Positions 58,522 through 60,595 of a DNA stretch of 64,000 nucleotides are shown piece after piece. A model generated the notes under the pieces. That model searched no databases. It was not told the DNA's origin and was given only the letters and a program-made list of their open reading frames with translations. The DNA is from Escherichia coli (lineage in GTDB: Bacteria; Pseudomonadota; Gammaproteobacteria; Enterobacterales; Enterobacteriaceae). Position 1 is the first letter of the stretch; the number at the start of each line of letters is the position of its first letter. A program made the translations under genes and the position numbers. Location of the stretch: the NCBI RefSeq assembly GCF_013315695.1, contig NZ_CP054353.1; one strand, written 5' to 3'.

Positions 58522-59313
58522 ATGAGCAGTAACTTCAGACATCAACTATTGAGTCTGTCGTTACTGGTTGGTATAGCGGCCCCCTGGGCCGCTTTTGCTC
58601 AGGCACCAATCAGTAGTGTCGGCTCAGGCTCGGTCGAAGACCGCGTCACTCAACTTGAGCGTATTTCTAATGCTCACAGCCAGCTTTTAACCCAACTCCA
58701 GCAACAACTCTCTGATAATCAATCCGATATTGATTCCCTGCGTGGTCAGATTCAGGAAAATCAGTATCAACTGAATCAGGTCGTGGAGCGGCAAAAGCAG
58801 ATCCTGTTGCAGATCGACAGCCTCAGCAGCGGTGGTGCAGCGGCGCAATCAACCAGCGGTGATCAAAGCGGTGCGGCGGCATCAACGACGCCGACAGCTG
58901 ATGCTGGTACTGCGAATGCTGGCGCGCCGGTGAAAAGCGGTGATGCAAACACGGATTACAATGCAGCTATTGCGCTGGTGCAGGATAAATCCCGCCAGGA
59001 TGACGCAATGGTGGCATTTCAGAATTTCATCAAAAATTACCCTGATTCAACTTTCCTGCCAAACGCCAATTATTGGCTGGGTCAGTTAAACTACAACAAG
59101 GGTAAAAAAGATGATGCGGCGTACTATTTTGCTTCGGTAGTGAAAAACTATCCGAAGTCACCAAAGGCTGCAGATGCGATGTTTAAAGTCGGCGTCATCA
59201 TGCAGGACAAAGGTGACACCGCAAAAGCGAAAGCCGTATACCAGCAGGTTATCAGTAAATACCCTGGTACTGATGGTGCTAAACAGGCGCAAAAACGTCT
59301 GAACGCGATGTAA
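58522..59313 (+). CDS. cpoB: Cell division coordinator CpoB (YbgF), TPR protein
   Basis: 263 aa; signal peptide, coiled-coil, TPR repeats. Confidence 0.93.
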   Translation: MSSNFRHQLLSLSLLVGIAAPWAAFAQAPISSVGSGSVEDRVTQLERISNAHSQLLTQLQQQLSDNQSDIDSLRGQIQENQYQLNQVVERQKQILLQIDSLSSGGAAAQSTSGDQSGAAASTTPTADAGTANAGAPVKSGDANTDYNAAIALVQDKSRQDDAMVAFQNFIKNYPDSTFLPNANYWLGQLNYNKGKKDDAAYYFASVVKNYPKSPKAADAMFKVGVIMQDKGDTAKAKAVYQQVISKYPGTDGAKQAQKRLNAM

Positions 59314-59477
59314 TGCATAACACACGACCAGAAGTCGCATTATTTCTGGTCGTGTCGTGCGAATCATAAGCAGTTGAGTGATCTACATCGAAATTTTTGT
59401 TGCGCTCAAGTCTGAAATCAGTAATATATGCCGCCGTTGCCACGGGATATCAAACAAACCGAAAGCAACGAAAAAGT

Positions 59478-59553
59478 GGGTCGTTAGCTCAGTTGGTAGA
59501 GCAGTTGACTTTTAATCAATTGGTCGCAGGTTCGAATCCTGCACGACCCACCA
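59478..59553 (+). tRNA. lysT: tRNA-Lys (anticodon UUU)
   Basis: 76-nt GGGTCGTTAGCTCAGTTGGTAGAGCAGTTGACTTTTAATCAATTGGTCGCAGGTTCGAATCCTGCACGACCCACCA with encoded CCA; anticodon loop cTTTTaa. Confidence 0.95.
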
Positions 59554-59599
59554 ATCGCTAAGGTGGAAGCGGTAGTAAAACGTGAAGGATAACGTTGCG

Positions 59600-59653
59600 T
59601 CAGCAACGGCCCGAAGGGCGAGACGAAGTCGAGTCATCCTGCACGACCCACCA
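59600..59653 (+). repeat. tRNA-Lys 3'-fragment relic in the lysT-valT spacer
   Basis: ...GGCCCGAAGGGCGAGACGAAGTCGAGTCATCCTGCACGACCCACCA repeats the tRNA-Lys acceptor/T-arm 3' end and is near-identical to the segment at 60380-60437. Confidence 0.55.
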
Positions 59654-59688
59654 CTAACATAGTTAGTTGTAGTATCCAGCGTAGTATT

Positions 59689-59764
59689 GGGTGATTAGCT
59701 CAGCTGGGAGAGCACCTCCCTTACAAGGAGGGGGTCGGCGGTTCGATCCCGTCATCACCCACCA
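59689..59764 (+). tRNA. valT: tRNA-Val (anticodon UAC)
   Basis: 76-nt GGGTGATTAGCTCAGCTGGGAGAGCACCTCCCTTACAAGGAGGGGGTCGGCGGTTCGATCCCGTCATCACCCACCA. Confidence 0.95.
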
Positions 59765-59766
59765 CC

Positions 59767-59842
59767 GGGTCGTTAGCTCAGTTGGTAGAGCAGTTGACTT
59801 TTAATCAATTGGTCGCAGGTTCGAATCCTGCACGACCCACCA
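59767..59842 (+). tRNA. lysW: tRNA-Lys (anticodon UUU)
   Basis: Identical 76-nt tRNA-Lys sequence. Confidence 0.95.
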
Positions 59843-59893
59843 CTAATGACGGTGGGTTCGGTGGAAGTAGTTTGTAGTATCCAGCGCAGTATC

Positions 59894-59969
59894 GGGTGAT
59901 TAGCTCAGCTGGGAGAGCACCTCCCTTACAAGGAGGGGGTCGGCGGTTCGATCCCGTCATCACCCACCA
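59894..59969 (+). tRNA. valZ: tRNA-Val (anticodon UAC)
   Basis: Identical 76-nt tRNA-Val sequence. Confidence 0.95.
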
Positions 59970-59972
59970 CTC

Positions 59973-60048
59973 GGGTCGTTAGCTCAGTTGGTAGAGCAGT
60001 TGACTTTTAATCAATTGGTCGCAGGTTCGAATCCTGCACGACCCACCA
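59973..60048 (+). tRNA. lysY: tRNA-Lys (anticodon UUU)
   Basis: Identical 76-nt tRNA-Lys sequence. Confidence 0.95.
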
Positions 60049-60096
60049 ATTTTAAAGATTGGTTCCGAGTAGAAATCTTTCAGGTAACACCCGTAT

Positions 60097-60172
60097 GGGT
60101 CGTTAGCTCAGTTGGTAGAGCAGTTGACTTTTAATCAATTGGTCGCAGGTTCGAATCCTGCACGACCCACCA
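60097..60172 (+). tRNA. lysZ: tRNA-Lys (anticodon UUU)
   Basis: Identical 76-nt tRNA-Lys sequence. Confidence 0.95.
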
Positions 60173-60205
60173 TCCTGAATGATTAAAGCAGCATAATCCC
60201 GCAAG

Positions 60206-60281
60206 GGGTCGTTAGCTCAGTTGGTAGAGCAGTTGACTTTTAATCAATTGGTCGCAGGTTCGAATCCTGCACGACCCACCA
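60206..60281 (+). tRNA. lysQ: tRNA-Lys (anticodon UUU)
   Basis: Identical 76-nt tRNA-Lys sequence; last tRNA of the array. Confidence 0.95.
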
Positions 60282-60285
60282 ATGT

Positions 60286-60312
60286 AAAAAAGCGCCCTAA
60301 AGGCGCTTTTTT
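60286..60312 (+). terminator. Rho-independent terminator of the tRNA operon
   Basis: AAAAAAGCGCC-CTAA-AGGCGCTTTTTT hairpin with T-run directly after lysQ. Confidence 0.75.
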
Positions 60313-60473
60313 GCTATCTGCGATACTCAAAGATTCGAACCTGCTGCAGGTTCGAGTTGAGCGCAGCGAAACAACGGAGCCGCTCGCGGCGACGGCCCGT
60401 AGGGCGAGCGAAGCGTGTCATCCTGCACGACCCACCAATGTAAAAAAGCGCCCTAAAGGCGCTTTTTTGCTAT
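60313..60473 (+). repeat. Duplicated tRNA-derived fragment plus second copy of the terminator
   Basis: Contains a T-arm-like ATTCGAACCTGCTGCAGGTTCGAG, then GGCCCGTAGGGCGAGCGAAGCGTGTCATCCTGCACGACCCACCA followed by an exact second copy of ATGTAAAAAAGCGCCCTAAAGGCGCTTTTTTGCTAT. Confidence 0.6.
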
Positions 60474-60595
60474 TCAGGTATCCTCAATTTCACTTTGTAA
60501 ACCTGATGACATCGTCAGAGCTTACTGTGCAAGCAACTCTACGTCGGTGGAATTAGGCGTAATTCGAGTGACTTTTCCCCACCATTCGACTATCT

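Follow-up and report, generated by a model that had tools for sequence, protein, structure and literature searches.

What are the pieces of tRNA sequence and the second terminator that lie among the tRNA genes between cpoB and nadA in Escherichia coli? We addressed this in a stretch of 64,000 nucleotides from contig NZ_CP054353.1 (hereafter the window; all features described are on the plus strand), for which an initial annotation had read tRNA-Lys 3'-end fragments and a repeated terminator as traces of unequal recombination or tRNA-templated duplication. The locus, which matches an E. coli chromosome over 1401 nt at 99.9% identity, is very probably the lysT tRNA operon of E. coli, in which two tRNA-linked repeats (TLRs, Rfam RtT) are present. 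The "fragments" and the doubled terminator are two copies of this TLR/RtT family; the family is already known, the finding is ordinary, and the operon of the window holds no new kind of element.

The first description of TLRs dates from 1978, and K-12 is known to have 22 of them at 10 loci, with one to five per locus (PMC8144298). As defined by Egan & Landy 1978 and Rudd 1999 (summarised in PMC8144298), they carry 3' 18-19 bp that are those of the upstream tRNA or rRNA, and no function is known for them (PMC8144298).

The seven tRNA genes of the lysT operon

ARAGORN detected exactly seven tRNA genes in the order Lys-Val-Lys-Val-Lys-Lys-Lys: lysT (59478-59553; Rfam tRNA score of 79.2 bits, position as for K-12 lysT), valT (59689-59764), lysW (59767-59842), valZ (59894-59969), lysY (59973-60048), lysZ (60097-60172), and lysQ (60206-60281), the final gene of the operon. 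Together with exact string matching, this bore out the order and the sequence identity given in the initial annotation, with 5/5 tRNA-Lys(UUU) copies identical to one another and likewise 2/2 tRNA-Val(UAC) copies. A block made of a leader, a Val gene, and a Lys gene occurs twice (59664-59842 and 59868-60048, 177/181 identical). No promoter was found at the lysT operon by a promoter/terminator consensus scanner.

The K-12 MG1655 lysT operon agrees with this one in its seven genes and in their order. It also has orthologs of the repeat after lysT and of the terminal terminator-TLR-terminator module, but differs by three extra TLRs, located after lysW, lysY, and lysZ. In the window, the spacers following these genes (51, 48, and 33 nt, respectively) are empty TLR sites. 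The large spacers reported for the K-12 operon (135, 150, 147, and 133 nt; PMC4176162) are the TLR-containing ones.

The tRNA 3'-end copies close two longer repeat elements

The string ATCCTGCACGACCCACCA occurs seven times in the window, namely at the 3' ends of the five tRNA-Lys genes and again in 59636-59653 and in 60420-60437; 100 shuffles yielded no match (0/100). The recurrence of a tRNA-Lys 3' fragment was thus upheld as two exact copies, except that the identity to the tRNA covers only 18 nt and the preceding 'TC' is part of the repeat element. The similarity between the two fragment regions, which would have been in doubt had it been shorter than first described, is in fact longer (59603-59653 vs 60389-60437, 46/51 identical). 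The fragments are real duplications, yet they are not isolated pieces: each forms the 3' terminus of an element 100-120 nt long. No tRNA or tRNA pseudogene was called in 59554-59688 or 60282-60480 by ARAGORN or by the Rfam tRNA model. Weak Rfam matches to YrlA, AgrB, sraL, and plastid families were set aside, as tRNA halves or the terminator hairpin account for them.

The first element, TLR-1 (59554-59653), is a short-form TLR/RtT in the lysT-valT spacer. Its first base directly follows lysT, its unit period is 100 nt (59536 to 59636), and it is the ortholog of the K-12 element after lysT. It passes the Rfam RtT model RF00391 with 60.6 bits (E = 6e-11; gathering score 45), in an alignment that uses the T arm of lysT itself as the 5' part of the model. 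The 18-nt copy that closes it (59636-59653, an exact match) spans the AT of the T-loop, the 3' strand of the T-stem, the 3' strand of the acceptor stem, and ACCA. In the predicted minimum free energy fold (-35.5 kcal/mol, z = -2.5), a 5' arm, CGTGAAGGAT (59581-59590), would form an outer stem with the tRNA-derived 3' arm (59636-59645). Three predicted hairpins are enclosed: hairpin 1 (CGTTGC-GTCA-GCAACG, 59593-59608) and hairpin 2 (CCC-GAA-GGG, 59610-59618), both also seen in the sample comparison described below, and an extended hairpin 3 (59619-59633) identified by covariation and composed of a C-G pair, a tandem GA/GA, and gacGAAgtc.

The second element, TLR-2 (60318-60437), is a long-form TLR/RtT that lies after lysQ and its terminator. 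It contains a T-arm palindrome (60332-60357) that was detected as inverted repeats and as a hairpin in the minimum free energy fold: 60332-60344 reads as the T-arm segment GCAGGTTCGAATC of tRNA-Lys in exact reverse complement, and 60346-60355 is a forward T-arm copy, GCAGGTTCGA. The element is closed by the other exact 18-nt tRNA-Lys 3'-end copy (60420-60437). It scores 44.7 bits with the RtT model (E = 6e-8), 0.3 bits below the gathering threshold of 45; its K-12 ortholog, from which it differs by three substitutions, scores 46.7 bits and bears the PGAP label 'RtT sRNA' in other genomes. The pairs of its outer stem are flagged as non-canonical in the RtT alignment, indicating a degenerate stem, and the GA motif carries an A-to-T change. 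Because of the sub-threshold score, the degenerate outer stem, and the altered GA motif, this copy may be decaying.

Both elements are assigned to the TLRs by their position directly 3' of a tRNA gene (TLR-1 after lysT, TLR-2 after lysQ and a terminator), by a terminal 18 nt that in both copies is identical to the upstream tRNA at its 3' end, and by homology to the K-12 lysT-operon and tyrT elements. The latter are the rtT RNA (rttR) and the 178-bp repeats of tyrT-tyrV (Egan & Landy 1978; Bosl & Kersten 1991; RF00391), with a homologous core directly 3' of the tRNA. The tyrT elements and those of the window alike end in 18 nt of the tRNA 3' end, have a complementary upstream arm, and come as tandem units, and an arginine-rich mini-ORF in the window is in the same frame as tpr of the tyrT rtT. 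Unlike in the tyrT rtT, the 3' end and complementary arm are specific to tRNA-Lys rather than to Tyr, and TLR-1 is a short form without the T-arm palindrome.

A duplicated terminator encloses TLR-2

The initial annotation had also noted that the operon terminator is present twice, and this proved correct. The terminators T1 (60282-60317, the same sequence as the K-12 lysQ terminator) and T2 (60438-60473) are identical, A6-GCGCC-CTAAA-GGCGC-T6, and each is preceded by the 18-nt tRNA 3' end, giving an exact direct repeat of 54 nt (60264-60317 and 60420-60473) that cannot be extended by one base on either side. TLR-2 is consequently enclosed by two identical terminators, and the module can formally be described as a 156-nt unit repeated 1.35 times. 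Both T1 and T2 have the form of intrinsic terminators, with a GCGCC/GGCGC stem followed by T6 (each -19.1 kcal/mol, z = -5.75). Neither was called by the consensus scanner, probably because the flanking A6 and T6 runs pair as well and lengthen the stem.

This layout, with the 18-nt repeat ahead of each terminator, matches the dual-terminator TLR arrangement. The same order as in 60264-60473 (18 nt, terminator 1, TLR, terminator 2) is found for RrA, RrB, and RrF of rrnA, rrnB, and rrnD (Stenum et al. 2021, PMC8144298), which differ in that the upstream gene is the 5S rRNA, that they have GGA motifs, and that they bind Hfq and CsrA in vitro (PMC8144298). Unlike in the rrn modules, T1 and T2 of the window are identical copies, and TLRs of tRNA operons are predicted not to bind CsrA. 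In K-12, an identical T1-TLR-T2 module also follows lysV.

TLR sites are polymorphic among E. coli strains

The number of RtT matches in this operon is five in K-12, four in strain 210205630, and two in the strain of the window. The K-12 TLRs after lysW, lysY, and lysZ (98, 98, and 99 nt) have no counterpart in the window. Each of the corresponding K-12 spacers consists of a TLR ending in ATCCTGCACGACCCACCA plus the spacer of the window, so that the absence is exact at the boundary of the 18-nt repeat. After lysW, the K-12 spacer is the 98-nt TLR followed by the identical 51 nt; the lysY and lysZ spacers show few substitutions.

Among 5,426 complete E. coli genomes, every TLR site of the operon was present in some and absent in others, which confirms that the copy number differs among strains, as had been anticipated. 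Empty sites were counted in 1,791 genomes for lysT, 1,887 for lysW, 1,233 for lysY, and 3,198 for lysZ, and the terminal TLR-terminator junction was found in 3,169/5,426; all of these counts are lower bounds, as they come from 40-nt junction queries (8 + 18 + 14 nt) at E <= 1e-8 that tolerate at most one mismatch. A 78-nt junction query for the empty lysW site was dropped, since two partial matches merge into one in genomes where the site is filled. Absence this common argues against an essential role of these sites in the maturation of the adjacent tRNA.

How might such exact absences have arisen? Each module is bracketed by direct repeats, of 18 nt inside the operon and 54 nt at its end, and recombination or replication slippage between them would remove a module precisely. 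Such losses would account for the two TLRs found here vs the five of K-12.

The repeat core and its fold are conserved across genera

A search in other genera recovered 166 cores in 120 loci, after Lys, Tyr, Arg, Pro, or Glu tRNAs, in Enterobacterales and in some Gammaproteobacteria outside that order. By far most of these cores terminate with the exact 3' sequence of the tRNA that precedes them; of those that do not, most are 1-2 bases off. From genus to genus, the occupancy of spacers by TLRs forms a mosaic.

The fold includes the 3' segment derived from the tRNA, which is paired to an upstream arm that depends on the tRNA type and closes a compact junction of three hairpins. Across loci, the 5' arm pairs with the 3' arm of its own tRNA type at 8.9/10 positions and with that of another type at 6.9/10. 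For the Pro- and Glu-type TLRs (2-5 sequences), own-type pairing was no better than pairing with other types, and the co-variation of the arms hence rests on Lys, Tyr, and Arg.

The alignment of 132 sequences, when analyzed with RNAalifold, returned only the two hairpins that had been fixed by the search pattern; the stem of hairpin 1 is invariant across the sample, although the pattern had fixed its 3' strand. Hairpin 3 varies in length and is out of register in this alignment, and its pairing was therefore scored on unaligned sequences with shuffle controls. It occurs as 61 distinct sequences, its stem averages 3.54 bp vs 0.61 bp in shuffles, and its Y..R pair is C-G in 103 of the 132 sequences, T-A in 26, and T-G in 3. 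A conserved tandem GA motif, of which the GA is present in 126/132 sequences, flanks this variable hairpin. These compensatory base changes, read from sequence comparison, support a conserved four-helix fold.

The comparison bears on how the elements arose. It could be argued that they are a local accident: unequal recombination inside this operon would have left behind shortened tRNA-Lys pseudogenes and a second terminator, none of them an element in its own right. The 177/181 block does show that the operon was shaped by segmental duplication, and the terminal 156-nt unit repeated 1.35 times has the same look; to this extent, the initial proposal stands. Its extension to the fragments does not, as these are not local debris or truncated pseudogenes but members of a conserved, structured TLR/RtT family: identity to the tRNA is limited to 18 nt, ARAGORN and the Rfam tRNA model see nothing tRNA-like in the remaining ~80-100 nt, homologs lie at tyrT and, in many genera, at tRNA operons for Arg, Pro, and Glu, and the covariation means that the fold has been maintained. 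The tRNA-templated duplication that was also proposed is a conjecture on the origin of the family. We regard a purely local origin as very improbable.

tRNA genes serve as integration sites for tyrosine-recombinase elements, which insert at the T-loop and leave the tRNA 3' end duplicated. The TLRs could accordingly be attL/attR remnants of decayed islands or prophages, as the repeat runs from inside the T-loop (TTCGA|ATCC) to CCA, a classic tRNA att geometry, and the long form of the TLR looks like a T arm split by an insert. However, the 82-102 nt between the repeats hold no integrase, cargo, or credible ORF, and a similarity search of 50,697 phage records gave no match to the TLRs. Matches in a plasmid collection were limited to 19 records, which are non-mobilizable and several of which are chromosome-sized. 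The core is also found at five or more tRNA types and, according to the literature, at 5S rRNA, with up to five tandem sites per operon and a conserved RNA-type fold. Integration scars are, in our opinion, the least probable of the explanations considered.

Another explanation is that TLRs are selfish repeats that spread to new tRNA genes through T-loop/3'-end homology and persist in a balance of gain and loss; DNA recombination and an RNA/cDNA intermediate are two conceivable routes for such a spread. A conserved structure combined with frequent loss of single copies is typical of mobile repeats, and the core, at several tRNA types, nearly always ends in the 3' end of its own tRNA, with a mosaic occupancy within and between genera. 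Against this, the repeats have no linked transposase or reverse transcriptase, they are absent from the phage collection, and their few plasmid matches are to non-mobilizable and often chromosome-sized records. In addition, each site has a TLR 5' part of its own, orthologous from strain to strain, which fits old residents that are being lost and not recent insertions. Selfish spread seems improbable to us.

Transcription, processing, and termination

The K-12 lysT operon is expressed as one transcript, whose full length is given only as >1100 nt (PMC4176162). From these K-12 experiments, TLR-1 would be co-transcribed within the single polycistronic precursor and would be part of a 135-nt trailer left on the pre-tRNA-Lys once RNase P cuts at valT. 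TLR-2 lies past T1 and would need read-through for its transcription. In the rrn operons, the TLR between terminators T1 and T2 is made by T1 read-through (PMC8144298); by analogy, TLR-2 may be transcribed solely in this way, with transcription stopping at the identical T2.

The initial annotation had suggested that the two terminators give alternative 3' ends of the operon, which is plausible from this arrangement. In the published K-12 Term-seq tables (supplements of Adams et al. 2021), all listed 3' ends lie at a tRNA end or directly after it, namely at lysT +3/+5, valT +2, valZ +3, and the CCA of lysQ; T1, T2, and the TLR ends have no entry. The absence at T1, T2, and the TLRs may come from the discarding of multi-mapping reads, as the 54-nt repeat is exact and an identical copy follows lysV. 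The K-12 lysQ and lysV terminators are identical to each other (PMC4176162), and the terminator probe that detects the full-length species on Northern blots (PMC4176162) matches the T1, T2, and lysV copies.

It is also conceivable that TLRs released from the precursor are functional small RNAs that act in trans or mimic a tRNA 3' end for processing enzymes. Models for action in trans exist in RrA/B/F, which bind Hfq and CsrA, and in 3'ETS-leuZ, which sponges sRNAs. The latter is, like the TLRs, a by-product of a tRNA precursor with a possible function of its own (PMC8144298), but it has no sequence kinship to them, and its sponge function has been demonstrated, whereas none is known for TLRs. 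In favor of functional RNAs are the compensatory changes across genera, the rtT RNA from tyrT, annotated in K-12 as a discrete 171-nt species, the RtT-family RNAs seen on Northern blots in Actinobacillus (PMC4986893), and the rrn TLRs, for which expression as well as in vitro binding to Hfq and CsrA is reported (PMC8144298). On the other hand, each site is absent in 23-59% of E. coli genomes, the stringent-response phenotype formerly ascribed to rtT was retracted, the 19 tRNA-operon TLRs have predicted CsrA binding scores of <0.01 (PMC8144298), and there is no known target. We consider such a role unlikely.

Discussion

The two repeats of the window are thus TLR/RtT copies in the lysT operon. 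The fold of the TLRs is maintained even though single copies are dispensable. One way to reconcile the two is that TLRs are selected tRNA-mimicking RNAs, with a four-helix junction whose outer stem combines an authentic tRNA 3' end with a co-evolving arm, and that they are kept across Gammaproteobacteria either as a pool that engages the enzymes of the tRNA 3' end (RNase P, RNase E, exonucleases, and the CCA-adding enzyme) or through selfish spread by tRNA 3'-end homology. Although we see this proposal as rather unlikely, either route, if true, would explain a conserved fold alongside the frequent loss of single copies.

The main value of these observations lies in annotation, as TLRs stand as unannotated spacer here and in most RefSeq records. 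They are easily misread as tRNA pseudogene fragments or as a sign of recent rearrangement, and the exact 18-nt and 54-nt repeats, together with the identical lysV copy, confound read mapping, 3'-end mapping, and operon assembly. The polymorphism of the sites, the arm matched to the tRNA type, and the compensatory changes in the hairpin sharpen the question of TLR function.

The repeated fragments are tRNA-linked repeats

ARAGORN and the Rfam tRNA model placed seven tRNA genes at 59478-60281 (lysT, valT, and lysW, followed by valZ, lysY, lysZ, and lysQ), in the order Lys(UUU)-Val(UAC)-Lys-Val-Lys-Lys-Lys. Sequence comparison agreed with the initial annotation that the copies are identical, both for tRNA-Lys (5/5) and for tRNA-Val (2/2). 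The 20-nt tRNA-Lys 3' fragment reported to recur does so over 18 nt, its first two bases (TC) being part of a repeat element and not of the tRNA. Seven copies of this 18-mer, ATCCTGCACGACCCACCA, were counted, one at the 3' end of each tRNA-Lys gene and two more at 59636-59653 and 60420-60437; none was found in 100 shuffled sequences. The operon terminator is indeed present twice, as T1 (60282-60317) and T2 (60438-60473), within an exact 54-nt direct repeat (60264-60317 = 60420-60473; period of 156 nt), the identity breaking off at the very next base in both directions. Both terminators form a strong hairpin (-19.1 kcal/mol, z = -5.75 each) ahead of T6. Rather than being shorter than stated, the similarity between the two fragment regions proved greater, with 46/51 identical positions over the last 51 nt. 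The initial observation is therefore correct and well beyond chance; the duplication is real, and the fragments, first read as traces of unequal recombination or tRNA-templated duplication, are members of a known, widespread, and structured repeat family, the tRNA-linked repeats (TLRs) or RtT elements.

The first match to the RtT model (RF00391) spans 59485-59653 (60.6 bits, gathering score 45); since the 5' part of the model aligns onto the T arm of lysT itself, the element proper, TLR-1, was set at 59554-59653. The second match (60312-60437; 44.7 bits, gathering score 45) corresponds to TLR-2 (60318-60437), the orthologue of which is labelled "RtT sRNA" by NCBI's pipeline in other E. coli genomes. 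A common core is visible when both elements are aligned with those of the K-12 lysT operon and tyrT. [quoted passage not shown] 2021, PMC8144298). The same paper assigns them "no known function" and notes that an early report of rtT RNA modulating the stringent response was retracted.

Both TLRs contain arginine-rich mini-ORFs on the plus strand (59582-59662 and 60357-60443; 26 and 28 codons, with GTG and TTG starts), and the frame over the conserved core is the one used by K-12 tpr, the 'protamine-like protein' inside the tyrT TLR. Most likely they arise incidentally from the GC richness of the core and are not coding sequences.

TLR sites are filled or empty depending on the strain

Copy number varies among strains, as had been anticipated: the lysT operon holds five RtT matches in K-12 MG1655 (after lysT, lysW, lysY, and lysZ, and past the lysQ terminator), four in strain 210205630, and two in the window strain. 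Each of the K-12 spacers consists of the window spacer preceded by a module of 98-99 nt that closes with ATCCTGCACGACCCACCA, with an exact match to the K-12 remainder for lysW and a few substitutions for lysY and lysZ. Across 5,426 complete E. coli genomes, sites were counted with junction queries of 40 nt that the true junction alone satisfies; with no more than one mismatch allowed, these counts are lower bounds. The site was empty, with tRNA-Lys joined straight to the distal spacer, in 1,791 genomes (33%) for lysT, 1,887 (35%) for lysW, 1,233 (23%) for lysY, and 3,198 (59%) for lysZ, while the terminal TLR-terminator junction was present in 3,169 (58%). Thus no TLR site in the operon is filled in all genomes, and none is empty in all. 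The combination found in the window is a minority haplotype: only 119 genomes gave a colinear match over at least 80% of the query, and only 91 carry its exact lysW junction. Precise TLR deletion would have an obvious route through the direct repeats on either side of each module (18 nt, or 54 nt for the terminal one).

Two subtypes were distinguished by the 5' part and hairpin 3 (K-12 spacers; window 59554-59582), with ...GGTGG...GAGACGAAGTCGAGTC in the lysT and lysZ TLRs and GTTTTAACATC...GAGCGAAGCGAGTC in the lysW and lysY TLRs, which suggests that TLRs were duplicated along with the tRNA genes. The Lys-Val-Lys-Val order itself is due to tandem duplication of a block made of a ~22-nt leader, tRNA-Val, 2-3 nt, and tRNA-Lys (59664-59842 versus 59868-60048; 177/181 identical).

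The terminal module

At the lysQ end, the tRNA 3' end and T1 are followed by a TLR and then by the same 18 nt and T2, an arrangement found by junction query at a median of two places per genome. In K-12, lysV closes the valU operon and is followed by a complete T1-TLR-T2 module (2521253-2521540) matching the lysQ end nearly base for base; as the two loci lie ~1.7 Mb apart, duplication or gene conversion is implied. In rrnA, rrnB, and rrnD, a TLR likewise lies between T1 and T2, and is made there through T1 read-through (PMC8144298). The window TLR-2 may be decaying, since its outer stem is degenerate in the Rfam RtT alignment, its RtT score is below that of the K-12 orthologue (46.7 bits), and it alone among 132 sequences has GT in place of the conserved GA.

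Comparative support for a maintained RNA fold

TLR-1 is predicted to fold (-35.5 kcal/mol, z = -2.5) with an outer stem, CGUG.AGGAU / AUCCU.CACG, enclosing three hairpins. Three comparative features speak for a fold that has been maintained. The sequence of the upstream arm changes with tRNA type: arms of the Lys type pair at 8.9/10 positions with the Lys 3' arm versus 6.9/10 with Arg arms, Arg-type arms do the converse, and Tyr elements have GGGGAAGGAT opposite ATCCTTCCCC. The Y of GGGYGA and the R of GARTMATCC are C-G in 103/132 sequences, T-A in 26/132, and T-G in 3/132, with no incompatible pair (0/132); the intervening pair of GA dinucleotides hardly varies (126/132). Lastly, the hairpin enclosed within the Y..R motif occurs in 61 distinct sequences and has a mean stem of 3.54 bp versus 0.61 when shuffled (maximum of 1.07 in 1,000 shuffles). 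The TLR can be modelled as a compact four-helix junction (-28.0 kcal/mol, giving no credit to G·A pairs), the topology of which would resemble a cloverleaf. Neither ARAGORN nor the Rfam tRNA model calls it a tRNA.

Transcription, processing, and surroundings

The K-12 lysT operon yields a single precursor of >1100 nt from one promoter; RNase P removes the terminator and then frees the pre-tRNAs in the 3' -> 5' direction, and the long trailers of the Lys pre-tRNAs are trimmed by RNase II/PNPase and RNase T (PMC4176162). RNase E is able to cut the large spacers of 135, 150, 147, and 133 nt (PMC4176162), which are the TLR-bearing ones, and TLRs go unmentioned in that paper. TLR-1 would be part of the lysT trailer and may come off as a discrete RNA, by analogy with rtT from tyrT; K-12 rttR has its end exactly at the CCA that closes its tRNA-Tyr fragment. 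Transcription of TLR-2 would depend on T1 read-through, with T2 as a presumed backstop ahead of nadA. K-12 Term-seq tables place operon 3' ends only at or just past tRNA ends. Reads at T1, T2, and the lysV copies may be dropped as multi-mapping because these are exact repeats, so Term-seq at T1/T2 calls for long or anchored reads.

The operon is flanked by cpoB (58522-59313) and nadA (60686 onward), and its 1401-nt region is 99.9% identical to the chromosome of a blood isolate of E. coli. Just past the cpoB stop codon, upstream of the lysT promoter, two arms of 12 bp (ACACGACCAGAA / TTCTGGTCGTGT; 59322-59355) form a perfect inverted repeat. As the corresponding K-12 site (780434) has a strong 3' end in Term-seq, this repeat probably terminates cpoB. 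Between T2 and nadA (window ~60563; ~1700-1730 in L001, the K-12 stretch used for comparison), K-12 has 28 extra nt (AAATGACGCATCCTGCACATTAGGCGTA-like) that the window strain lacks; this insert has the repeat TTAGGCGTAA on its flanks and includes ATCCTGCAC, the 9 nt with which the tRNA-Lys 3' fragment starts. A 13-nt near-repeat (TCGGTGGAAGTAG / TCGGTGGAATTAG) between the lysW distal spacer (59858-59870) and the region after T2 (60544-60556) is probably due to chance. A sub-threshold YrlA (Y-RNA-like) match at 60117-60257 (44 bits, gathering score 69), reaching from the 3' part of lysZ across the spacer into the 5' part of lysQ, recurs in another E. coli strain and was judged an artefact of two adjacent tRNA halves.

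Distribution outside E. coli

A core-pattern scan with one genome per species returned at least 120 DNA stretches. The genera among the matches listed include Citrobacter, Enterobacter, Klebsiella, Erwinia, Pantoea, Hafnia, Budvicia, Gilliamella, Marinobacterium, and Amphritea. [quoted passage not shown] No TLR match was found among 50,697 phage records, and the plasmid collection gave only 19 matching records, all non-mobilizable and several chromosome-sized. Of about 50,000 places matching the operon query, 15 were plasmid-borne. One small E. coli replicon, NZ_CP098226.1 (50,485 bp, recorded as a plasmid), carries operon-like tRNA-Val and tRNA-Lys genes. The TLR family combines a conserved fold with apparently frequent loss of individual copies.
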